A DNA stretch of 64,000 bases. It comes from an uncultured Methanosarcinales archaeon. Lineage in GTDB: Archaea; Nanobdellota; Nanobdellia; Woesearchaeales; CAZYIM01. The stretch's first letter is position 1; the number at the start of each line of letters is the position of its first letter. A program made the translations under genes and the position numbers. Below are positions 11,225 to 59,610 of this stretch, one piece after another. The notes beneath the pieces were generated by a model that was not told the DNA's origin, ran no database searches, and saw only the letters and a program-made list of their open reading frames with translations. Location: positions 16,235 to 80,234 of the forward strand of contig CAZYIM010000002.1 of NCBI GenBank assembly GCA_964647565.1, given 5' to 3'.

Positions 11225-12022
11225 ATGAGTGAATTATTAGTAAAAAATAAAGATGTTGTTGCACCTGGACAAGTTCTTGCCGTTGGCATGGATTACTTGC
11301 CCAGTAATGGAACATATAGATTAGATGATAAGATACTAGCAAACAGGCTCGGTCTTATCACAGTAGATGGAAAAGTAATAAAGTCGATTCCGCTTGCAGG
11401 TAGATATATGCCTAAGCCAAAGGATATTATAATTGGCAGGGTTAAAGATATCTTAATGACTGGTTGGAGAATGGACATAAGCAGTCCTTATTCAGCTGTT
11501 CTTTCTGTTAGAGATACCAGAGAGTTCATAAGGAATACAGATGATCTTTCTAGGGCATATGCACTTGATGACTGGGTTGTTGTGATGATAACTAAGGTAA
11601 CAAGCCAGAATCTTGTAGATGTGTCGATGAAAGGCCCTGGAGGCTTAAGAAAGCTGAGAGGTGGCAGAATAATCAAGGTAAATACCCATAAGGTCCCAAG
11701 GATAATTGGAAAGAAGGGATCAATGGTGTCCATGATTAAATTGGCAACAGATTGTCAGATAACTGTCGGCCAGAATGGTAATGTGTGGATTTCAGGAAAC
11801 GATCCAAATAAGGAGCTAGTGGCTGTTTTAGCAATACAGATGATTGAAGAACAATCACACGTTTCTGGATTGACCAATATTATCAAGAAGTTCTTGGAGG
11901 AAAAGACAGGAGCCAAGATTCCTGATGCTCCGATGAATGAGGACAACCACCAAAGCCAACATGGTGATAATCATCAACATGGTGATAACCACCAACAACA
12001 TTCCAGGGAGGGATCACAATGA
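11225..12022 (+). CDS. rrp4: exosome complex RNA-binding subunit Rrp4 (S1 + KH)
   Basis: S1-like (GDIVIGRV...GWRMDI) and KH (IIGKKGSMVSMI) regions. Operon context. His-rich C-terminal tail. ATG at 11225; the track starts at an upstream GTG. Confidence 0.8.
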   Translation: MSELLVKNKDVVAPGQVLAVGMDYLPSNGTYRLDDKILANRLGLITVDGKVIKSIPLAGRYMPKPKDIIIGRVKDILMTGWRMDISSPYSAVLSVRDTREFIRNTDDLSRAYALDDWVVVMITKVTSQNLVDVSMKGPGGLRKLRGGRIIKVNTHKVPRIIGKKGSMVSMIKLATDCQITVGQNGNVWISGNDPNKELVAVLAIQMIEEQSHVSGLTNIIKKFLEEKTGAKIPDAPMNEDNHQSQHGDNHQHGDNHQQHSREGSQ

Positions 12023-12741
12023 CTGACCAAAAACGACCAGACGGAAGAGCCATGGATGAACCCCGACCTATGGAGGCTAAAGCAGGAGTTATCAAGAAAG
12101 CAGACGGATCTGCATACTTTAGAATTGGTAGGACCTTTGCTTATGCAGCAGTTTATGGACCCAGGGAACTTCATCCAAGATCCATGCAGGATCCTAAAAG
12201 AGGCTTGTTGAGAGTTAACTACAACATGATGCCTTTCTCAGGTGATGGTGATAGGGTAAGGCCAGGACCAAGCAGGCGTTCAAAGGAAATATCACAGGTT
12301 ACAGCATTGGCATTTCTGCCAGTAGTTGATCTTGAAGATTATCCTAATGCAGTTGTTGATGTATTTATTGAGCTGCCAGAAACAAATGCAGGTTCACGAT
12401 GTGCAGGCATATGTGCAGCTTCAATAGCTCTGGCCGATGCAGGCATAACCATGAAGGACATGGTGGCATCTGTATCTGGTGGTAAGGTAGGCGATTCCCT
12501 TAGGATTGATTTGGATGGAGAAGAAGAACATATCGACGATGTTGATGTTGCCGACATACCAATTGCAGTGGTGCCAAGTACTGGCGAGATAACTCTATTG
12601 CAGATGGATGGTTTTATCAAAAAAGATGAACTCCTTAGTGTTATGGAGACTGTGAAAAAGAAATGTGCAGAGATTGCAGAGGTGCAGAGGCAGGCGATAA
12701 GAGACCGGTTTGCAGTTACAGCAGGTGATAAAAATGAATGA
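12019..12741 (+). CDS. rrp41: exosome complex exonuclease Rrp41 (RNase PH family)
   Basis: RPDGRAMDEPRPMEAKAGVIKKADGSAYFRIGRTFAYAAVYGPRE matches the RNase PH domain. Its ATGA start overlaps the rrp4 stop. Confidence 0.9.
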   Translation: MTDQKRPDGRAMDEPRPMEAKAGVIKKADGSAYFRIGRTFAYAAVYGPRELHPRSMQDPKRGLLRVNYNMMPFSGDGDRVRPGPSRRSKEISQVTALAFLPVVDLEDYPNAVVDVFIELPETNAGSRCAGICAASIALADAGITMKDMVASVSGGKVGDSLRIDLDGEEEHIDDVDVADIPIAVVPSTGEITLLQMDGFIKKDELLSVMETVKKKCAEIAEVQRQAIRDRFAVTAGDKNE

Positions 12742-13525
12742 AGATGTAAAAAAGCACATCAGTGATTGCCTGTTGAAAGGTATAAGGCTAGATGGTCGAA
12801 AAAAGAATGAATTTAGAGATATTGAAATTCAGACTGGTGTCAGTTCAACTGCAGAAGGCTCGGCAAGAGTCAAGTGCGGCGATACTGAAGTGATTGCAGG
12901 AGTCAAGATGGCAGTTGGAGTACCATATCCTGACAGCCCAGACGATGGTGTGTTAATGGTTGGAGCAGAACTTCTTCCGTTATCAAATCCTGAATTTGAG
13001 TCCGGACCTCCAAGGTTTGCGTCAATCGAGATTGCCAGGGTTATTGACCGAGGCATAAGAGAGAGTAAGACCATAGATACAAAATCACTTTGTATTGAAC
13101 CAGGCAAGAAAGTATGGATGGTCCAGGTAGATATTTGCCCTATTAACTCAGATGGAAACTTAATAGACATAGGTTCAATTGCAGCTCTTGCAGCTCTTAA
13201 GACAGCAAAGTTCCCTTCATATGATGAGAAACTTGAAAAAGTAGACTATCATACTAAAACAGACAAAAAGCTTCCGCTTTCAAAGAATCCCATACCTGTG
13301 ACTGTTATCAAGATAGGTGATAATCTTCTGGTCGATCCTCTTGAAGCTGAAGAGAAGGCATTGGATGCCAGGTTGACAGTTACTCATATTGACGATGGTA
13401 AGATATGTTCTCTGCAGAAAGGTGGAGAGGCGTCCTTGACTGTTGAGGATATTGATGCTATGGTTGCTCTTGCAGATGAGAACAGCAAAAAGTTAAGGGA
13501 GCAGATAAATAAAGTTGAAGGGTGA
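12734..13525 (+). CDS. rrp42: exosome complex subunit Rrp42 (inactive RNase PH-like)
   Basis: RNase PH-like fold sequence. Follows rrp41 with an 8-nt overlap. ATG at 12734; the track starts at TTG 12710. Confidence 0.8.
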   Translation: MNEDVKKHISDCLLKGIRLDGRKKNEFRDIEIQTGVSSTAEGSARVKCGDTEVIAGVKMAVGVPYPDSPDDGVLMVGAELLPLSNPEFESGPPRFASIEIARVIDRGIRESKTIDTKSLCIEPGKKVWMVQVDICPINSDGNLIDIGSIAALAALKTAKFPSYDEKLEKVDYHTKTDKKLPLSKNPIPVTVIKIGDNLLVDPLEAEEKALDARLTVTHIDDGKICSLQKGGEASLTVEDIDAMVALADENSKKLREQINKVEG

Positions 13526-13584
13526 GAAAATGCTTAAAAATCGTTACACAATTTTTAGCATATTTAAAACCGGAGGTTTTAAAC

Positions 13585-13827
13585 ATGAAGTCGAAGCTTG
13601 AAGAAGGCGAATTCACCAAATATGAAAAAGCCCGGATGATTGGCAGCAGGGCGCTCCAGATATCTATGGGCGCTCCTTTCCTCGTAAAATTAAATCAGAA
13701 GCAGCTTGAGGAACTCAATTTCAATCCTGTTGAGATTGCCAAGCGAGAGTTCGAAGCAGGTGTCATTCCAATTGAAGTCAAAAGGACCCTGCCCAGGCTC
13801 GAGGAAGAAGAAGCCAAAGCTGAGTAA
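13585..13827 (+). CDS. rpoK: DNA-directed RNA polymerase subunit Rpo6 (RpoK/omega-like)
   Basis: TKYEKARMIGSRALQISMGAPFLV is the RpoK signature. GGAGGT Shine-Dalgarno lies 7 nt upstream of ATG 13585; the track ORF starts at GTG 13522. Confidence 0.75.
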   Translation: MKSKLEEGEFTKYEKARMIGSRALQISMGAPFLVKLNQKQLEELNFNPVEIAKREFEAGVIPIEVKRTLPRLEEEEAKAE

Positions 13828-13890
13828 TTTTTTATTTTATTTCTTTTTTTTATATTTACAAGTAGTTGACAAGTTATGAGAACTGCTTGA

Positions 13891-14214
13891 TCATATTGTT
13901 TTCTTTATGAACGGCTTCATCAAGAGAGCCAGAATGAATAAGAATATTGCGCTTGCCAATCCCCAAGCCCAGTTCTGCAATGCAAGTGTTGCCAGCACCA
14001 GGGTTATTATGATCACTATTATCATCGGAGGACCATAGAAAAAAAAATCAATAACATAGATCCCTGCGAGCACTATGAAAAATATCAGGCTTAGGTGGGT
14101 GAGTATACTTATGTGTCCAAAACCTATGATTGTAGGATCTATGAAGCCAAAGAAAAGAGCTCCTACAAAAGCCAATGAGATGATGTCAGTGATAAGCCTG
14201 GGAATGTAAACCAT
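13891..14214 (-). CDS. small integral membrane protein, hypothetical
   Basis: 107 aa, three hydrophobic helices. Confidence 0.4.
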   Translation of the reverse strand: MVYIPRLITDIISLAFVGALFFGFIDPTIIGFGHISILTHLSLIFFIVLAGIYVIDFFFYGPPMIIVIIITLVLATLALQNWAWGLASAIFLFILALLMKPFIKKTI

Positions 14215-14274
14215 GATTGATTCTTTGAGAATTAGGTATTTAAATATTTCGATGGGATATTTTACTACTTATTA

Positions 14275-15168
14275 GTGGTTAATAAACGAAAGATTTATAA
14301 AGGATTAGTATATAATGATACCATTGAGATAAGAGGTGATCTAATGAATACCTTTGAAATGTTGAATGTTATTTTGAATGCAAGTCCGTACAAAGCTGAA
14401 AAAGAGCATAACGAGCAAATTGAACAGGCAAATAAGAGCCTTCGAGATGCTGAAAAATCAGAAAAGTATCTGGGTGAAACAGTCCGGAGATTAACTGGAT
14501 ACATTGAAGCTGCAAAACAGTCAAAAACCTTCGATGCATCCGATGATTATTTCTTAAGAGGTAAGATGGGCGGTGAAGATATATACTATAAACCTATACA
14601 TGAAAGGAATGGTACACCTGATGAATACCCTTCAGATTATTTCTTAGAGCATATAGCTGAACAATTTGAAAACTATAAAACATCCTTTGAAATTGCTCAA
14701 CAAAAAGTTATTGAACTTAAACAAGCTGATGGACCAAAAGCACCTGATTTTAAGAAATTAAAAGACGAATATGATCAGACTATATCTGAATTCAACAAGA
14801 AATTCGATGGTGTTGTTAACGTGACTTTGGTCAAACAAAAATTCAATGAGGTTCCTGCTTGTCCTCTTATATACTTGACAGAAGATGCATCAACTCTTCG
14901 AGGAGATATGCAAACTTTTGTAGAAAGTAATATTGATGAGCTGGATGTTGAGGCAGTCCATCCAACAGAAGGTGAGGTTGCTCCGGTTCTGAATGTCTTT
15001 CCCAAACAAGGGATGGGTACTGGTTGGATTGATTTCTTCCGAAGTGATCAAGTATATATTGATCCAAAAAAGATACCTAAAGGGGTGGTTATGTCTGCCT
15101 CAAGTCTAGATCAGGATAGTTTTATGACTCGAATTCTATCGAGTTATCTTGACTCCAAGCTAAGTTGA
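14275..15168 (+). CDS. hypothetical protein
   Basis: 297-aa ORF with window-typical codon usage. No motif recognised. Confidence 0.45.
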   Translation: MVNKRKIYKGLVYNDTIEIRGDLMNTFEMLNVILNASPYKAEKEHNEQIEQANKSLRDAEKSEKYLGETVRRLTGYIEAAKQSKTFDASDDYFLRGKMGGEDIYYKPIHERNGTPDEYPSDYFLEHIAEQFENYKTSFEIAQQKVIELKQADGPKAPDFKKLKDEYDQTISEFNKKFDGVVNVTLVKQKFNEVPACPLIYLTEDASTLRGDMQTFVESNIDELDVEAVHPTEGEVAPVLNVFPKQGMGTGWIDFFRSDQVYIDPKKIPKGVVMSASSLDQDSFMTRILSSYLDSKLS

Positions 15169-15289
15169 TTTCTTATTTTATTTTTTCCCTTTCTTTTCAT
15201 AAACTTACAAGATTTTAGAAAATTTTGAAGTTAAGAAATATCAAAATATTTCATAAACTTTTTAAAACCTTCTTCTTCTCTTGTGTACT

Positions 15290-16750
15290 ATGTCACAACA
15301 ACTTGGAATCACGGTAAAGAAGAAGGATGATTTTTCCGAATGGTACTCTCAGCTGGTGCAGAAAGCTGAACTTGGCGACCTTAGATATAATGTTAAAGGT
15401 TTCCTGGTTTACCTGCCCTGGGCTACCCGTACAATCCGGAAGATGTATAGCAAGTATGAGGCTGAGATGGATGCAACAGGCCATGAGCCGCTTACTATGC
15501 CGTCCTTGATTCCAGAGAGAAACTTCAATCTGGAGAAAGATCATGTAGAGGGCTTCACACCAGAGGTGTTTTGGGTTACAGAACATGGTCAAGGTGAGAA
15601 GTTCGAGGAAAGGTTGGCACTCAGGCCTACGTCTGAGACTGCTCTTTACCCTATGTATTCATTATGGATACGAAGCTATAAGGATCTTCCATTCAAGAGA
15701 TACCAATCCTGCCAGGTCTGGAGATGTGAGGGTAAGATGACCCGGCCTTTTTTCAGGGCCAGGGAATTCCATTGGATCGAGAGCCATAATGTTTATGCTA
15801 CGCATGAAGAAGCTCTTGCTCAGGTAAAAGAAGACATGGAAATAACTCTTAAGCTGCTTCAAGATGAGTTTGCAATCCCTGCCATCTTCTTCAAGAGGCC
15901 GCAATGGGATAAGTTTGCAGGAGCCCTGAATACCTATGCTGCAGATGCTTTGATGGATTCAGGAAAGGTGCTTCAATTGCCTTCCACCCATGATCTTGGT
16001 CAGAACTTTGCCAAGGCTTTTGGTGTTAAGTTTGTGGATAAGGATGGTAGTGAAAAGCACGGTTGGATTACATGTTATGGCCCTGCTATCAGCAGGATCT
16101 ATGGTGCTATGATAGCCCTTCTTGGAGATGATAACGGGTTAGTGTTACCTTTTGACCTGGCACCTTTGCAGGCTGTGATTGTTCCTATTCTATTTGATAA
16201 GAGTTCGGATGCTGTTTTGAAGAGATGTAATGAGGTGAAGAAGCAGCTGGAGAAGCTTGGCCTTAGTGCCAAGGTTGATACTCGTGATGAGAAACCTGGC
16301 TTTAAGTTCCATCATTGGGAGCTAAAAGGCGTGCCTATAAGGATTGAGGTCGGCCCGAAGGACCTGGAAAATAAGCAGGTTGTGTTATGCAGACGGGATA
16401 TAGGTGAGAAGACTGCAGTAGCTGACAAGGATTTTGATAATGTTGTCAAGGATATTAAGGCGGGCTTTACAGATAATATCAAGAAAAAACATTTCAAGAA
16501 GTTTGAGGACAGGATGGTTAATGCAAAAAACACTGCTGACATCAAGAAGGGTCTTGATTCTGGTAAGATAGTTCGTTGCGAATTCTGTTCAGATGGTCTT
16601 GACGGCGTTCCTTGCGCAGAGGTTGTTGAGAAAGAATGCGGCGGCTTTGTAAGAGGTACAAGAGCAGACAAGGAAGAGGAACCAAAAGGCTATTGTGCTA
16701 TCTGTGAGAAGGAATCCAAAGAAATTGTCTATATTGCTAAGAGCTATTAA
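15290..16750 (+). CDS. proS: proline--tRNA ligase (archaeal/eukaryotic type)
   Basis: Class II aaRS motifs (LALRPTSETALYPMYSLWIRSYKDLP; FRAREFHWIESH). C-terminal zinc-binding-like CxxC...CxxC. ATG at 15290. Confidence 0.9.
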   Translation: MSQQLGITVKKKDDFSEWYSQLVQKAELGDLRYNVKGFLVYLPWATRTIRKMYSKYEAEMDATGHEPLTMPSLIPERNFNLEKDHVEGFTPEVFWVTEHGQGEKFEERLALRPTSETALYPMYSLWIRSYKDLPFKRYQSCQVWRCEGKMTRPFFRAREFHWIESHNVYATHEEALAQVKEDMEITLKLLQDEFAIPAIFFKRPQWDKFAGALNTYAADALMDSGKVLQLPSTHDLGQNFAKAFGVKFVDKDGSEKHGWITCYGPAISRIYGAMIALLGDDNGLVLPFDLAPLQAVIVPILFDKSSDAVLKRCNEVKKQLEKLGLSAKVDTRDEKPGFKFHHWELKGVPIRIEVGPKDLENKQVVLCRRDIGEKTAVADKDFDNVVKDIKAGFTDNIKKKHFKKFEDRMVNAKNTADIKKGLDSGKIVRCEFCSDGLDGVPCAEVVEKECGGFVRGTRADKEEEPKGYCAICEKESKEIVYIAKSY

Positions 16751-17189
16751 AGGATTATTTCTTTTTTAAGTATGTCAACTTCTAGCTCTCTTTTTTCTAT
16801 TGAGAAGTTAGCCTGTAATATGAATGTGACTAATATCACATTCTCTATCTCACCATTGTTCTCTTTAATTATGGTGATAGTCTGCTCTGCCTCAAACTCC
16901 GGCAGTTTCTCTAGTTCTTGGAGTTCATTCATTCTATATAGGTATACTTATTTGTATACTTATATATAAATGTTTCGAAAATATTAATTTTCAAAGCCTC
17001 AAAATCTTCGATTTTTTATGTTTCGATTGTTTGTTGTTGGTATATTCGTGCTTACAAATCTATAATTTTTCGTTACTTTTTAGTAGTAAAATAACCGAAA
17101 GTTTTATAAATGGAGACATAACCTGGGAATTGATTTTAATTTTTTTTTTTTATTCAGGTTAAATATAAACTAGAATATGAGGCGAGAAA

Positions 17190-17861
17190 ATGAAAGAAGA
17201 TGATTTTTTGATGAAAATATATAAAGACGTACTTGAGATAAGCAGTGGCAATGAGATTGATGAAAACTCATTCAACATGCTGAACTCCCTTGGATTGGCA
17301 GGACATGTTGATGCTGCTCATTATGAAAAAGGAAAACAAATGAGGTTCCCACATCTGGGTGCTCAGAAAAATCTATGGTTGAATCCAGAAGGTGCTGCTA
17401 AGACTGAAGAAGGCGACAAGTTCACAATAGTAGATAAAACCAATACTGAAGACTTGAAGCTCATTGTTGAATCTGCAGCTCTTGAATTTGATATGTGTGA
17501 ATGTAGGGACGGTAAAGACTCTTATCAGGGAATAACACAAGAGTATGGCGCTTTATTGCTTAAGGTGCAAGATGCATTATTCAATACATTCCGACAGGAA
17601 GCAGGCGATGATTGTCCCAGTTTTGCAGGTTTTAGTGAGTTTAAAGAACGCGCATATGATATCATTGATAGGATGGATCTTGATGATCATAGTACAATGC
17701 GCATCAAGTTTGGCGGTATGATCATGCCCACTATGACTGTAAAGACAGTCAGTGATTTTGCTGGGGAAAGCGTACACAGCAAGTTCACCAAGGCTGTATA
17801 TGAGAAGCGGCTTGATGGTATGGTTGACAGGATACAAACTGCTTACCAGAATCTAGATTAA
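17190..17861 (+). CDS. hypothetical protein
   Basis: 223-aa ORF, no motif recognised. Confidence 0.45.
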   Translation: MKEDDFLMKIYKDVLEISSGNEIDENSFNMLNSLGLAGHVDAAHYEKGKQMRFPHLGAQKNLWLNPEGAAKTEEGDKFTIVDKTNTEDLKLIVESAALEFDMCECRDGKDSYQGITQEYGALLLKVQDALFNTFRQEAGDDCPSFAGFSEFKERAYDIIDRMDLDDHSTMRIKFGGMIMPTMTVKTVSDFAGESVHSKFTKAVYEKRLDGMVDRIQTAYQNLD

Positions 17862-17937
17862 TTCTTTTCTTCTTTTTTTCTTTTTCTTTTTATTACCGTA
17901 ATATTTTAATAATAGTTAGTTCAGGATTTGTTTTAGG

Positions 17938-19380
17938 TTGAAAGAGAAGAGGTTTGTTAGTTTTTTGTTAGTTGTAGTTTTATCTATGGCTTTGGCTCTT
18001 GTTTTTTTGGATTTTGTTCCTTCTGGTGGTTTGGCGGGTGTTGGTTTGAGTTGTGATTCTGTTTGTTTTGATGGTGGTTATAGTCGTGGTTTTTGTTTGC
18101 CTGAGAGTGCGGGTTGTGTTATTGAGGGTAGTGTTCATGAGGGTGTTGGTGATGTTTTTTGTTCTGAGCGGTTGTCTGTTGATTCTTTTTGTTGCTGTTT
18201 GGGTATTAGTCAGGATACTGATGGGGACCGAAATGTTTTGACTAAGTCTGTTGGTGTTGAGTTTGTTTATGCGGTTGGTCAGAGGGTTGCGAAGGTTGAG
18301 GGTGAGGATGTTTTCTTTTTTGTGAATGATCATTTGGGTAGTCCTAGGCGGGTTTTGGATGTTGGTGGTGCTGTTGTTTCTGAGTTGGATTTTTTGCCGT
18401 TTGGTGGTGAGATGACTGCTAGTGGTGAGGATTTTAAGTATACTGGCAAGGAGTTGGATTTTGATTCTGGTTTGCATTATTATGGTGCTCGTTTTTATGA
18501 TTCTGTTCTTGGCAGGTTTGTTACGCCGGATATTGTTGAAAAGTTTCCTAATCCTTATGTCTATGTTGCGAATAATCCTATGAGAAATATCGATCCTACA
18601 GGTGAGCAGGTTGTGAATCTTGCTGGCCGGCAAAAACAATTAGCAGCCGTAACTAGTTGGACCAAAAAACACATGCCTGAGCCTGTCTATAATGTCCTGA
18701 ATTTTGTTTTAGGATTCGATGAGTCTATGGAGACTAGAATGAAGAATTCACTGACAGATATGCTCCTGCCTATGTCTTCAGTTGAAAAGGTTGCTAAGAA
18801 GGGGGGTAGCAAGATACTTGACAAGGTGGGATCCTGGTTTCGGAAAAAGTTCAGATCTGCGCCAGTTAAGCAATATGGTCCTCATTCTAACAGGGAATTC
18901 GGAAGGATATACAACCAATTGCGAGAGTGGGGTGCTGATTGGGAGGCGGACGATTTTCTTAAGCTTCACCAGGCAGACCAGGTTCAATACGGAGATCTGG
19001 GATTTAATGTGTTTGTAAGCAAGAATCCGACTGGAGGATACTGGAAGTCCAGTGATATATTTACTGACAGGCTAGGTGGTCGAATCAATCTGGGACCTGA
19101 GCTTGGTGTCACAATAATGGATATGCCGCGAGTCCCTTACTTTTGGGGGTTTGGTAGAAAACGAATGAAAGATGCCACTGCCTTTGAGGCTTCGGTTGTG
19201 ATGCACGAACTTCAGCATAAGATGAATCCTGGTATGTCTGAAAAAGGAGTGGTTTGGCAGACCATTCGTCGAAAGCTAGGGTTGGATGTGGACTACATGC
19301 GGCCTAGCGAGGATTTTGTGCTGATTAATAACAGGTTAAGTGATAATTATCTAGACATGGCTAAGAACGGTATCAAATGA
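17938..19380 (+). CDS. RHS repeat-associated core domain protein with divergent C-terminal (toxin-like) domain; orphan-like cassette
   Basis: N-terminal signal/TM, Cys-rich module, then RHS-core signature GLHYYGARFYDSVLGRFVTPD...NPYVYVANNPMRNIDPTGE. A unique roughly 260-aa C-terminal region follows, containing VMHELQH. It is paralogous to 25877-27286 over the first ~220 aa only. Confidence 0.7.
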   Translation: MKEKRFVSFLLVVVLSMALALVFLDFVPSGGLAGVGLSCDSVCFDGGYSRGFCLPESAGCVIEGSVHEGVGDVFCSERLSVDSFCCCLGISQDTDGDRNVLTKSVGVEFVYAVGQRVAKVEGEDVFFFVNDHLGSPRRVLDVGGAVVSELDFLPFGGEMTASGEDFKYTGKELDFDSGLHYYGARFYDSVLGRFVTPDIVEKFPNPYVYVANNPMRNIDPTGEQVVNLAGRQKQLAAVTSWTKKHMPEPVYNVLNFVLGFDESMETRMKNSLTDMLLPMSSVEKVAKKGGSKILDKVGSWFRKKFRSAPVKQYGPHSNREFGRIYNQLREWGADWEADDFLKLHQADQVQYGDLGFNVFVSKNPTGGYWKSSDIFTDRLGGRINLGPELGVTIMDMPRVPYFWGFGRKRMKDATAFEASVVMHELQHKMNPGMSEKGVVWQTIRRKLGLDVDYMRPSEDFVLINNRLSDNYLDMAKNGIK

Positions 19381-19693
19381 AATACATTTTCAAAAACTCA
19401 CAAAACTTGAGGTTTTGCAAGGCTTTTTATTGCGAAAACTAGCAAAACTTTTTGGTGCGTTTTGAAGTTTTCCCATCTTTGCGATGCGAAAACTATTTAA
19501 ATAATTTCATCAAGAGGAATATCGAAGAGGGATACTCATAAAAAAAGTAGGTTGGGTTTTAGTTGTTATTGCATTACTGCTTCTTAGTTCTATCTTCATC
19601 TATGCAGATGGTGATGAGGGTGAAGGAGAGGAGAATGAGAATCCTACTGACTTAAACAAGGTCATCGGCACTCCTGATGACAGGTTTGAGGTT

Positions 19694-53422: not shown

Positions 53423-53647
53423 ATGGCATCAACAACAATCCAGCTTGAGAAATCGCTTGTCGATTCGCTAAAAGAGATTCGACAATATCCTAGGCAGACA
53501 TATAACGAACTTATTGAACAGATGATTAAAGTGTTTAAGGCTGTAAAGGAAAGAAACCAGTACGATGAATTCCTGCATAAGGTGCAGAGCGCAAAGATGA
53601 AGGAATTATGGGATAACAAGGAAGATGAGGTTTGGGATGACGCTTAA
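53423..53647 (+). CDS. putative antitoxin (small partner of MazF-like toxin)
   Basis: 74-aa acidic protein overlapping the downstream toxin gene by 23 nt. Confidence 0.4.
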   Translation: MASTTIQLEKSLVDSLKEIRQYPRQTYNELIEQMIKVFKAVKERNQYDEFLHKVQSAKMKELWDNKEDEVWDDA

Positions 53648-53951
53648 ATCTGGTGATGTAGTACTGGCCAGGGTCCAATTCACAGACACTTTCGAGATCA
53701 AGAAGAGACCTGTCCTCATATTGTTTGAGGAATTTGATAATGTAGTTGTTGCAGGTATTACTAGCAATCTGGGCATGAAGGGAATTCGGTTGACTAAAAA
53801 AGAGGGTGCGCTCAAAGATAGTGTTATTAAACTGAACTATATATTCACTGTTTCGAGTGTTATGATCGAGAAGAAATTGTTCTCATTATCTCCAGAAAAA
53901 AGAAATATTGTTTATAAAGGTTTGAGGACTAAGATTGATGGCCTGAAATAA
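53625..53951 (+). CDS. MazF/PemK-family toxin-like endoribonuclease
   Basis: GDVVLARVQFTDTFEIKKRPVLILF...VVVAGITSN...DSVIKLNYIFTV matches the PemK/MazF pattern. Confidence 0.55.
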   Translation: MRFGMTLKSGDVVLARVQFTDTFEIKKRPVLILFEEFDNVVVAGITSNLGMKGIRLTKKEGALKDSVIKLNYIFTVSSVMIEKKLFSLSPEKRNIVYKGLRTKIDGLK

Positions 53952-56231: not shown

Positions 56232-56747
56232 TTAATCAATTATTTCGTTAATCTTTGCAATAAACTTTTTTGCTTTTTCGTATATTTCTTCAACTCTTCT
56301 TTGCGTGTATATTTTTGTGGCACTGTATCTGCTCACTGAGCTTTCAGTTCTTGCTTCCTTGAAGTAGTCTATGTAATCATCTTCAAATATCTTGTGAGCT
56401 TGGTCTAGAAGCTCTAAGTCTTCTTTTTCAATCTCATCTGGCACAAGAAGATGGCTGAGAGCGATTTGTGTTGAGTAGTGATCATCTGTTTCATATCCTT
56501 TTGTTAGAATTATAGCTTTTGCTAGATATAACATGGAGTAATAGCAGATAGTGATGGTCCAGTAATCCCTTGCAGGCTCATCAGATTCTTTGATGGATCT
56601 TGCCAGATCAAAACTATCATTTCCTTTTTTTACAAACTTTTTTATCTTAAAGCTGGCGTTGCTTTCTCTTATGAAAAACTTGTGTGCTTCTGACTCTTTC
56701 AAGAGTTTATTAAATTCTTTTTCATATGTTTCTTTGTTAAATTCCAT
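56232..56747 (-). CDS. HEPN-like helical protein (partner of adjacent nucleotidyltransferase)
   Basis: 171-aa all-helical protein overlapping the upstream nucleotidyltransferase gene by 11 nt. The arrangement is typical of MNT-HEPN pairs. The HEPN Rx4-6H motif is not clearly seen. Confidence 0.35.
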   Translation of the reverse strand: MEFNKETYEKEFNKLLKESEAHKFFIRESNASFKIKKFVKKGNDSFDLARSIKESDEPARDYWTITICYYSMLYLAKAIILTKGYETDDHYSTQIALSHLLVPDEIEKEDLELLDQAHKIFEDDYIDYFKEARTESSVSRYSATKIYTQRRVEEIYEKAKKFIAKINEIID

Positions 56748-57321
56748 TTTTATTCTTCCAGATAATGTTCCAGAAATATTCTTCTCCGTGCAGTATTATA
56801 TGTTTTTTTAGTATTTCATTTGTAAGATTATGTTCTTCTTCATTTAACATGGCTTTGAATTCTTTTCTTGAAAAGAATAAGGGATTTACTTTTACATCAT
56901 ATAGGTGCTCGAATTGTGAAAAATTAATATTGTTTTTTCCATCTTTATTTACGGCGCAGATATCAACATCACTTTTCTTCCTGTGTGTTTCATTTGCTCT
57001 TGATCCAAAAATTATTAAAGTATATTCTCCCTCAGGTAAATTCTTTTTAATTAACTTGAATTCAGGGTATTTTGTTAAGAAGGAATCTGTCATTTTCCGT
57101 TCAGCTAGGATGAGATAGTTTTTTGTGATGTTATCATCCTTCTTTAATGATACAAGCTTGATGTTTCCTTTCTGATTGATTCTGAATAATTCCTTATTTG
57201 CTTCGATAAGTCTGTGTGTTGTAGTATTTGGTACACTTGATTCTATTGAAAGCTGTCTGATTGGTATATCATCATTCATGTGTTTTCCTAAAAAATATAT
57301 TAATCTAAAAAGATTTCCCAT
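56737..57321 (-). CDS. minimal nucleotidyltransferase (MNT) domain protein with N-terminal wHTH
   Basis: LIIFGSRANETHRKKSDVDICAV matches the GS-x9-13-DxD nucleotidyltransferase motif. N-terminal HTH-like segment. Confidence 0.55.
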   Translation of the reverse strand: MGNLFRLIYFLGKHMNDDIPIRQLSIESSVPNTTTHRLIEANKELFRINQKGNIKLVSLKKDDNITKNYLILAERKMTDSFLTKYPEFKLIKKNLPEGEYTLIIFGSRANETHRKKSDVDICAVNKDGKNNINFSQFEHLYDVKVNPLFFSRKEFKAMLNEEEHNLTNEILKKHIILHGEEYFWNIIWKNKNGI

Positions 57322-59301: not shown

Positions 59302-59610
59302 ATGGCTGACGAAAAAATTTTGGAGATTTCAGATGACAAGCTTGACAAATACTTTAAGATAACAGGCGAGGCCTTGGAGATGGCAAGAGCAGCCCCTAAA
59401 AGAAAAGACATGCCTGATGAGGCAGAAGATTTTCTGGACATGGCCAATAGATATTACGAGGATGCAGGACATTTCAGAGAAAAAGGTGATTATGTCAATG
59501 CCTTTGCAGCGCTCAACTATGCGCACGGCTGGCTGGATGCAGGTGCCAGGATAGGCTTGTTTGAGGTCAAGGACAGCAGGTTGTTCACTGTCGATGATGT
59601 CGATGACTAG
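59302..59610 (+). CDS. small conserved archaeal protein (DUF357-like)
   Basis: 102 aa. YEDAGHFREKGDYVNAFAALNYAHGWLDAGARIG resembles DUF357-family proteins. Confidence 0.4.
   Translation: MADEKILEISDDKLDKYFKITGEALEMARAAPKRKDMPDEAEDFLDMANRYYEDAGHFREKGDYVNAFAALNYAHGWLDAGARIGLFEVKDSRLFTVDDVDD

Follow-up and report, generated by a model that had tools for sequence, protein, structure and literature searches.

Strand-specific G+T skew in the conserved head of a stand-alone RHS cassette gene from a Woesearchaeota-like archaeon

The DNA stretch analysed here (the window, 64,000 nucleotides of contig CAZYIM010000002.1 from an uncultured archaeon) contains a stand-alone RHS cassette gene, called here the orphan gene, located at 17938..19380 on the + strand and coding for a protein of 480 amino acids (aa) with a TTG start codon. 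Its conserved head displays an extreme excess of G and T on the coding strand. The skewed tract, delimited by a change point in third-position composition, comprises codons 1–215 (17938..18582, + strand), and the toxin tip that follows it is of ordinary composition. The skew characterises a small clade of cassette heads, in which it is old and has been maintained; among ca. 115 RHS-core loci, the more distant homologues are free of it.

Composition of the skewed tract

The skew was first noticed in a sequence-only reading of the window, which described the + strand of the tract as almost entirely G and T. The direction of the skew is correct, but its actual extent is ca. 75–77%, with A at 0.164, C at 0.100, G at 0.310, and T at 0.427 in the segment 17938-18640. 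Sliding windows, the check proposed in that reading, confirm that the skew is real: in windows of 600 nucleotides (nt) over the 64 kb, G+T has a mean of 0.536 with a standard deviation (sd) of 0.040 and peaks at 0.777 (ca. 6 sd) at start 17951. Other genes of the window show nothing comparable, the runner-up peak, in the paralogous module at ca. 25750-25950, reaching just 0.64. The maximum-likelihood segment is 17862-18522, with G+T of 0.773 inside and 0.536 outside (log-likelihood ratio, lnLR, 63). In the comparison loci (123 loci, 843 kb) no 600-nt window exceeds 0.70 G+T on either strand. The G+C content is flat (0.40–0.43) across the orphan tract and that of its paralogue, and equal to that of the host.

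The skew is strongest where the genetic code leaves a choice. In 30-codon windows the third-position G/T fraction is 0.87–1.00 until ca. 18520 and then 0.63 at 18570-18650; the change point (lnLR 35.5) separates a fraction of 0.94 from one of 0.64. The four-fold degenerate sites of the head comprise T 0.82, G 0.12, A 0.02, and C 0.03, while those of the tip (T 0.43, A 0.24, G 0.22, C 0.12) resemble the other + strand genes (T 0.39, A 0.28, C 0.18, G 0.15). Two-fold pyrimidine sites of the head carry T in 66 cases and C in 3, two-fold purine sites G in 40 and A in 5, and 16 of the 20 Leu codons are TTG. The rule followed is thus T wherever it is allowed and G elsewhere, with A at four-fold sites giving way to T and not to G. 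Back-translation of the same protein with the codon use of the other + strand genes yields G+T of 0.613 ± 0.011 against 0.754 observed (z 12.7), so that, as the sequence-only reading maintained, the skew is not a mere amino-acid effect. The head protein itself is also G/T-encoded above the background of ca. 0.51: the first-position G/T of the core, 0.685, is higher than the maximum among 104 homologous cores (0.655), and the second-position value of 0.50 lies near their maximum (0.508).

Codon preferences of this kind could reflect translational selection, with near-optimal or deliberately slow NNU and NNG codons serving high expression or paced secretion and folding, and with tips that are unadapted. 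The head does exaggerate, for the majority of amino acids, the commonest + strand codons (GTT, GGT, GAT, TTT, AAT, TAT, CAT, CCT, AAG, CAG, and AGG), and a boundary at the junction of head and tip fits an old head joined to a young tip. Codon usage elsewhere in the window had been described as A-ending, which proved wrong, as the + strand genes already favour T-ending codons and use AAG in 56% of cases. Nevertheless, the window housekeeping genes, coding for the proteasome alpha subunit, exosome subunits, and prolyl-tRNA synthetase (ProRS), have a third-position G/T of just 0.50–0.64. Ordinary genes of both orientations have more C than G at four-fold sites of their coding strand, the opposite of the head, and 30–40% C at two-fold pyrimidine sites, whereas the head is almost C-free. 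Moreover, the genome more often uses other codons than Leu TTG, Thr ACT, Ile ATT, and Ser TCT/AGT, and the shift of the first and second positions and of the amino-acid content is unexpected under codon selection. An optimal codon set is undefinable in a window with no ribosomal-protein or tRNA genes. Taken together, these points make translational selection quite improbable.

An antisense open reading frame (ORF) of 219 aa at 17980..18639 on the - strand, of low complexity (T/N/R/I/K), is a by-product of the skew, being open owing to the A-free third positions of the coding strand; it was rejected as a gene, since it occupies the codon-complement frame, in which stops need sense TTA, CTA, or TCA, nearly absent here. 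In the JGI contig L084 (6301-6402) a gene caller predicted a partial antisense gene at this place, in another reading frame. ACA, the site of MazF, occurs once in the head and 11 times in the tip; avoidance of MazF cleavage was considered as a cause, but a tip with 11 ACA sites would be cut anyway.

The paralogous head and the cassette-head clade

The window contains a second copy of the head in a paralogous cassette (25877..26566, + strand), situated after an RHS shell gene and showing 66–72% aa and 71% nt identity to the head of the orphan. Its skew is milder, with a maximum-likelihood segment at 25908-26370 (G+T 0.68 inside vs 0.53 outside, lnLR 18.7) and with T 0.62 and A 0.17 at four-fold sites. 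The asymmetry of the differences between the two copies, reported in the sequence-only reading, is borne out by the counts (A>G 34 vs 9, C>T 33 vs 7, A>T 28 vs 7, C>G 12 vs 4), to which T>G (21) and G>T (20) are added, transversions being as frequent as transitions. However, identity at the 59 shared four-fold sites is 0.56, with 0.52 expected from the two compositions alone. The silent sites are saturated, and therefore the raw substitution counts merely restate the compositions. All six four-fold sites with G in the paralogue have T in the orphan, and 6 of the 38 with T in the paralogue have G; such G-to-T and T-to-G replacements would not result from the loss of A and C from a paralogue-like ancestor. 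Polarisation of the amino-acid differences with 13 outgroups assigns seven to the orphan (net +5 G/T) and nine to the paralogue (net -13 G/T), hence approximately half of the contrast is due to the paralogue drifting off G/T, and the ancestor was already G/T-rich. The longest stretch identical in both copies is 21 nt, so they can hardly recombine now.

These data bear on the proposal of directional hypermutation made in the sequence-only reading, i.e. a recent strand-specific burst, caused by a deaminase or a process resembling that of diversity-generating retroelements (DGR) or repeat-induced point mutation (RIP), after duplication from the copy at 25877. The asymmetric differences agree with it, as does the presence of skew in both paralogous heads and its limitation to their homologous part. 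Targeted hypermutation by DGR, fungal RIP, or AID likewise produces a local, strand-aware peculiarity in gene families under diversifying pressure; in RIP the duplicated or homologous part alone is affected, and in AID switch regions the non-template strand is G-rich beside a recombination junction. On the other hand, RIP and deaminases are recognised by transition-only changes with a recoverable ancestor, while here silent sites are saturated, T>G and G>T changes are common, A>T is on a par with A>G, transversions abound, and a single strand is affected. DGR targets are recognised by a nearby reverse transcriptase gene and an adenine-only template repeat; no reverse transcriptase, deaminase, or recombinase gene is found among the larger window ORFs scanned, there is no template repeat, and the changes involve all bases and are not adenine-specific. 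It is also the conserved and not the variable part that is affected, tandem switch-like repeats are lacking, half of the polarised differences fall on the paralogue branch, and the trait is common to homologues in other genomes. The proposal thus did not stand, and we regard a hypermutation burst as very improbable.

The distribution of the skew was followed in RHS-core loci from genomes (80), viral contigs (31), and metagenomes (3). In the genome loci the core G+T has a mean of 0.49 and a maximum of 0.61, and the third-position G/T a mean of 0.54; over 78 diverse loci the core-minus-tip contrast averages +0.015, so there is no general contrast. No similar skew is seen in the 31 viral-contig loci or in the 3 metagenome loci found by a scan with head-specific peptide patterns, the latter being distant. 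In a neighbour-joining tree of 90 cores, the orphan, the paralogue, and the loci L087 (P0001), L088 (P0002), and L123 (P0003), the last three being the nearest homologues and stemming from other metagenomes, form one clade with a mean four-fold G/T of 0.87; the clade is thus sampled by 4–5 members. The third-position G/T of the head is 0.80–0.92 in L087, whose flanking genes have 0.50 and 0.54, and 0.80–0.88 in L088, with 0.44–0.62 in the tip. In L123 the four-fold T is 0.79 in the head and 0.66 in the tip. When the G/T and A/C counts at four-fold sites of head and rest are compared by Fisher tests, the odds ratios (OR) are 10.1 for the orphan (p 4e-8), 2.2 for the paralogue against the rest of its operon (p 0.002), 5.8 for L087 (p 1.5e-6), 7.5 for L088 (p 4.6e-6), and 2.3 for L123 (p 0.10). 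A weaker effect is found in L011 of Woesearchaeota (OR 3.0, p 0.008) and in L007 (OR 2.6, p 0.004), and no significant one in L124, L125, L126, and L089 (OR 0.6–1.0). The start codon is A-free in the orphan (TTG) and in L088 and L123 (GTG), and ATG in the paralogue and L087. In L087 (443-1251) the ORF of the head stops ca. 15 codons past DPTG and shares one base (886) with the start of the next ORF; the tip may thus constitute a gene of its own or may have been split off by a frameshift.

Other strand biases occur among the comparison loci. The high-G+C, prophage-like RHS genes of L114 (4200-5300), L110, and L028 have the opposite, A+C skew, up to 0.70, with a third-position G/T of 0.15–0.17, which is probably due to their YD-repeat proteins being rich in residues with C-ending two-fold codons. 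In the Woesearchaeota RHS gene of L017 (3101-3700; G+C 0.48) the signal peptide and a low-complexity region have a third-position G/T of 0.75–0.85, and the YD repeats and core 0.57–0.65.

In the orphan, the skew ends at the boundary of the conserved and variable parts, as the sequence-only reading stated: the change point lies at codon 215 (2-lnL support 198–229) and the DPxG junction motif ends at codon 222. That reading was right as to the location of the stop but not as to its abruptness, since the skew declines over ca. 100 nt just before DPTG. The respective positions of the change point and the end of DPxG are codons 140 and 141 in L088, 145 and 141 in L123, 168 and 231 in the paralogue (with support reaching 231), and 103 and 132 in L087 (with support reaching 132), so in each member of the clade the change point is compatible with the junction. 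The distance from the start to the change point is 645 nt in the orphan, 420 nt in L088, and 435 nt in L123, and a promoter-proximal effect of fixed length is thereby ruled out. The 5' edge of the skew coincides with the start of the cassette ORF, the overlapping co-directional shell gene being ordinary both here and in L087.

A foreign origin, the other proposal of the sequence-only reading, would mean that the head, or the cassette before tip exchange, was recently imported from a donor whose coding strands are all G+T-rich, e.g. a single-stranded or rolling-circle element, the paralogue being an older and partly ameliorated import. Compositional breaks between core and tip are the classical mark of separate histories in rhs loci (PMC2935791), the nine derived changes of the paralogue moved it off G/T-encoded residues, and the tip of L123 is also fairly G/T-rich. 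Yet no such donor is present among the genome, viral, and metagenome loci, in which neither core nor any 600-nt window approaches the head in G+T, and the G+C content equals that of the host. Members of the clade are ca. 50% identical and saturated at silent sites, but they have kept the skew in different genomes. Moreover, tip displacement brings in a core fragment together with a tip, so it is the tip that should look foreign, and it is ordinary. The proposal found no support in the loci compared, and we give a recent import only a small chance.

Architecture of the cassette, its assemblies, and the host

In the orphan protein a signal peptide or transmembrane segment is followed by a Cys-rich domain, then by an RHS-associated core fragment, and lastly by a unique toxin tip. 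Its ORF is open in frame 1, and the other two + frames of the module contain 8 and 30 stops. The start at 17938 is favoured because homology to the paralogue extends back to the KEKRF/RNDRF N-terminus. The putative N-terminal signal peptide or membrane anchor (17938..18030, + strand; MKEKRFVSFLLVVVLSMALALVFLDFVPSGG), as read from the translation, can be aligned with the N-terminus of the paralogue. The Cys-rich domain (18052..18198, + strand), defined by the alignment of orphan and paralogue, extends from C39 to C87, contains eight Cys residues, has no match in Pfam, and is seen in these two genes only. In a protein search with the head the database matches were restricted to the core half of the query, with identity of at most 52%; the word-indexed protein search missed the orphan and the paralogue, though both are in the collection.

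The RHS repeat-associated core domain (18397..18603, + strand), delimited with TIGR03696 and an alignment with 13 homologues, ends in the DPTG junction motif (18592-18603). The orphan (aa 154–222) scores 70.7 bits and the paralogue 78.1 bits with TIGR03696 (Rhs_assc_core), both above the curated cut-off of 32.5. The orphan has the core-end pattern YYGARxYD ... NPxxYxDPxG followed by an unrelated C-terminal domain, and the alignment reveals the invariant columns G, K, D, Y, G, A, R, Y ... N, P, D. Every motif of the family is preserved, and comparison with the paralogue indicates purifying selection (pN 0.22, pS 0.51, dN/dS at most 0.31). The variable toxin tip of 256 aa (18604..19377, + strand) is unrelated to that of the paralogue. 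An HELQH motif of the HExxH type can be read in its sequence at 19204-19218. Searches of Pfam, PDB, and protein sequences gave no match for the tip; among 1.84 billion representatives the sole match with E<1e-30 was its own cluster (P0235), and two weaker ones (E 1e-18 and 3.5e-4) concern short repeated stretches, one of them in a repeat-rich protein of 1457 aa.

Behind the upstream gene, the intergenic region 17862..17937 (+ strand) is first T/C-rich; ca. 25–35 nt 5' of the orphan start an A/T-rich, TATA-like stretch can be read, which suggests that the gene may be served by a promoter of its own and have a short leader or none. No immunity gene, expected directly behind the tip of an rhs orphan, was recognised among the ORFs in the 313 nt between the orphan and the next gene, the small ORFs there not having been examined further. 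The next gene is a large one coding for an RHS N-terminal part and listed from GTG at 19694; its frame is open since 19538 and encodes a typical signal peptide (IKKVGWVLVVIALLLLSSIFIYADG...), which begins with ATA in place of ATG and has a TTTAAATA box ca. 35 nt upstream (19495-19700). Either the start is non-canonical or it has decayed.

The RHS/YD-repeat shell gene preceding the paralogous cassette (23383..25893, + strand; Pfam RHS_repeat, E 7e-44) is ordinary in composition (third-position G/T 0.65, four-fold T 0.39) and ends just 5' of the core. A split RHS architecture, with a shell gene followed by a separate ORF for core and tip provided with its own signal peptide, is seen both in the window (23383-27286) and in L087 (1-886). 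Shell gene and cassette overlap by 17 nt in the former and by 11 nt in the latter, the Cys-rich domain being present in the window cassette. Many database homologues are likewise proteins of 300–390 aa in which a short core stands between a signal peptide and a tip.

The break between core and tip invites comparison with that of the rhs loci of Enterobacteriaceae described by Jackson et al. (2009, PMC2935791). In both cases a core fragment homologous to a full rhs locus leads through a DPxG-type junction to an unrelated tip, the composition changes at the junction, and it is through recombination within the conserved part that tips are swapped. However, the enterobacterial break is a G+C peak, and composition there follows the host genome, whereas here G+C is flat, the break is in the G+T strand skew, and composition follows the module clade across genomes. 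With regard to the rhs "orphans" or dissociated tips (Jackson 2009; Poole 2011), the gene at 17938 has the expected core fragment homologous to the full-length rhs of the same locus and the compositional discontinuity between core and tip, although in skew and not in G+C. Its position differs, being upstream of the shell genes (19694-25893) and not downstream, and unlike the known rhs orphans, which usually have no translation start of their own, it is equipped with a start codon, a signal peptide, a Cys-rich domain, and a TATA-like region upstream. Literature searches for a strand-skew break at constant G+C in rhs gave the classical G+C peak only. What we describe is a new form of the known core/tip compositional break of rhs.

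The full orphan protein is present in three assemblies as P0239, P0238, and P0235, members of one cluster. The NCBI copy, on a 133-kb contig, is identical to the window; the JGI copy (P0238, 21.6-kb contig) carries Ser8Gly, and the ENA copy (P0235, 9.4-kb contig) Glu63Asp. The former variant is due to position 17959 (+ strand), with A in the window (AGT, Ser8) and G in L084 and P0238 (GGT, Gly8); the latter, at 18124..18126 (+ strand; GAG, Glu63, in the window), is the sole difference in 471 aligned residues. Both known variants fall in the head and none in the tip, a distribution that hints at elevated variability of the head and rests on these two. L084 corresponds to window positions 11616-18018 with one mismatch in 6403 aligned bases and confirms the 5' junction; it breaks off 80 nt into the tract, the single fact in keeping with an assembly or sequencing artefact or a chimeric contig, which the sequence-only reading had asked to be checked. 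Three independent assemblies agreeing to within single residues, a coding frame that alone is open, and intact family motifs exclude such an artefact for practical purposes, its probability being negligible.

The host is a Woesearchaeota-like archaeon of the DPANN group with no close sequenced relatives. Genes of the window code for the proteasome alpha subunit, SBDS, exosome RNase PH subunits, RpoK, an archaeal-type ProRS, RtcA, a Ski2-like helicase, and a type IV pilus-like pair of ATPase and membrane protein. The ProRS is identical to P0115, while its next matches, some of them labelled Woesearchaeota, are 66–68% identical. Toxin–antitoxin-type genes comprise a PemK/MazF-like toxin, a pair of HEPN and nucleotidyltransferase genes, and a gene for a MazE-like domain protein (53625-53951, 56232-57321, 59607-60497). 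Rfam and tRNA scans of the window gave nothing. The four-fold composition of the + strand is alike for genes of both orientations (T 0.39, A 0.26–0.28); this T-over-A pattern is a replication-type skew, and the window probably lies on one replichore.

Possible causes of the skew and its significance

The explanation we favour, tentatively and with a probability of roughly 0.4, is a persistent, mutational drive of the coding strand to T, or to G where T would be non-synonymous, acting on an old head under purifying selection. The head would be kept as a protein by this selection while directional pressure acts on every tolerated codon position. Since silent sites are saturated among the members of the clade, the composition is maintained and not inherited frozen. 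The tips would be swapped in by recombination at the DPTG junction, as rhs tips are known to be displaced through recombination at the end of the core (PMC2935791), and their ordinary composition would be explained by such replacement, leaving them too young to have been driven. The drive itself may arise from damage to the coding (non-template) strand while single-stranded: C would deaminate to U, read as T; lost bases would be bypassed with A inserted opposite, yielding T; and A would deaminate to hypoxanthine, read as G. Damage to an exposed strand would make T the sink and G the fallback, matching the hierarchy observed. A mutational process is also favoured by the shift at first and second codon positions and by the weak skew of the genome, which has the same sign.

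Strand skews arising from asymmetric deamination in replication and transcription are well documented (PMC2031905, PMC3269016). Examples comprise GC and AT skew, G+T-rich leading strands, and the G+T-rich H strand of vertebrate mitochondria, all attributed to damage of single-stranded DNA; as in the head, T exceeds A and G exceeds C, the effect is strongest at silent sites, and T is the sink. A weak version is shown by the + strand of the window itself (four-fold T 0.39 vs A 0.27). The known skews are, however, modest and span replichores or whole transcripts, whereas that of the head extends over ca. 650 nt, ends within a gene, reaches 94% G/T at third positions, and travels with the module and not with chromosomal location.

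Several points weigh against the mutational drive. Single-strand exposure or high transcription of the head strand would have to be assumed. The co-directional shell genes just upstream are unskewed (third-position G/T 0.63–0.65 here, 0.50 in L087), and ordinary genes of the genome lack a T/A asymmetry of the transcriptional kind and have C over G on the coding strand, the reverse of the head. The genes flanking the head on the same strand in L087 are A-rich, which for this locus also rules out an amplified replication-strand bias. A mutational process limited to the head in several genomes would need some specific cause, and the RNA–DNA hybrid predicted from the composition would be rich in weak rU:dA pairs, unfavourable to R-loops. 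Selection at the nucleic-acid level gives the same static pattern, the clade is represented by its 4–5 sampled members, and the polymorphism evidence consists of two variants.

Such selection, keeping the head free of A and C, is possible, though we consider it doubtful. Four benefits may be envisaged: the G/T-rich strand could be preferred by RecA-family recombinases, making the head a homology handle for tip swapping; strong helices are impossible in a G+U mRNA; a tract with no A on one strand and no T on the other contains neither TATA boxes nor palindromes, which would block internal or antisense promoters able to express a leaderless toxin; and T runs would attenuate archaeal transcription of a toxic gene. 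The maintenance of the trait despite synonymous saturation speaks for selection, as does the coincidence of the limits of the skew with those of a functional unit (the start of the cassette on one side, the DPxG junction on the other), and the order T > G >> A, C at all classes of degenerate sites, together with the TTG and GTG starts. Predicted folding is ca. 30% weaker in the head than in the tip (-57 vs -82 kcal/mol per 300 nt), but no specific RNA structure beyond that of shuffled sequences was found in the head (z -0.75). Archaeal RNA polymerase terminates at T5–6 (PMC2253867), and eight T runs of 5–7 bases lie inside 17961-18496 (at 17961, 18002, 18090, 18155, 18186, 18316, 18390, and 18492), i.e. 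ca. 12 per kb compared with 0.9 per kb in the other + strand genes; their number is nevertheless explained by composition (8 T5+ runs observed vs 6 expected, p 0.2), and they were rejected as evidence for an attenuator. T runs in a coding sequence may still trigger premature termination by the polymerase, or slippage. The blocking of promoters would count most in or beside the tip, which is unskewed.

As to recombination, RecA prefers TGG/GT-rich DNA, and GT-rich hot spots such as Chi and TGG repeats, favoured by RecA/Rad51 (PMC3763553), resemble the head in having a G/T-rich strand in a segment that serves as rhs recombination homology. A further possibility, which we think unlikely, is that the head is a strand-polarised "handle", from whose coding strand a homology-limited process linked to the exchange of cassettes keeps A and C almost absent. 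Either the same strand would be repeatedly exposed in one-ended recombination or break-induced copying and would accumulate damage, or selection would favour a G/T-rich strand preferentially paired by the archaeal recombinase. As regards selection for recombination, tandem-repeat and k-mer searches of the head disclosed no switch-like repeats, recurrent motif, or Chi-like word, the skew fades towards the junction, where recombination is expected, and the local copies, sharing so short an identity, are too diverged to recombine. The preference of RadA is assumed, and second-order selection for recombinogenicity is weak in theory.

The pattern itself is striking and reproducible. It has two practical consequences: tracts of this kind can lead annotation astray, as when at least one gene caller put an ORF on the antisense strand, and substitutions counted pairwise between paralogues so composed are misleading. 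Compositional skews are usually read as marks of replication direction, transcription, or recent import, whereas the skew described here, unsurpassed in ca. 900 kb of sequence compared, is a property of one protein module; it stops at a junction known for recombination and persists in several genomes even with silent sites saturated. Were the handle interpretation true, prokaryotes would have in the head a counterpart of immunoglobulin switch regions, devoted to the swapping of toxin tips. If the skew is mutational, it would mean that in these organisms of reduced genome a stretch of DNA is handled unlike its neighbours; if it is selective, the conserved part of polymorphic toxin cassettes would have a function at the level of the nucleic acid.

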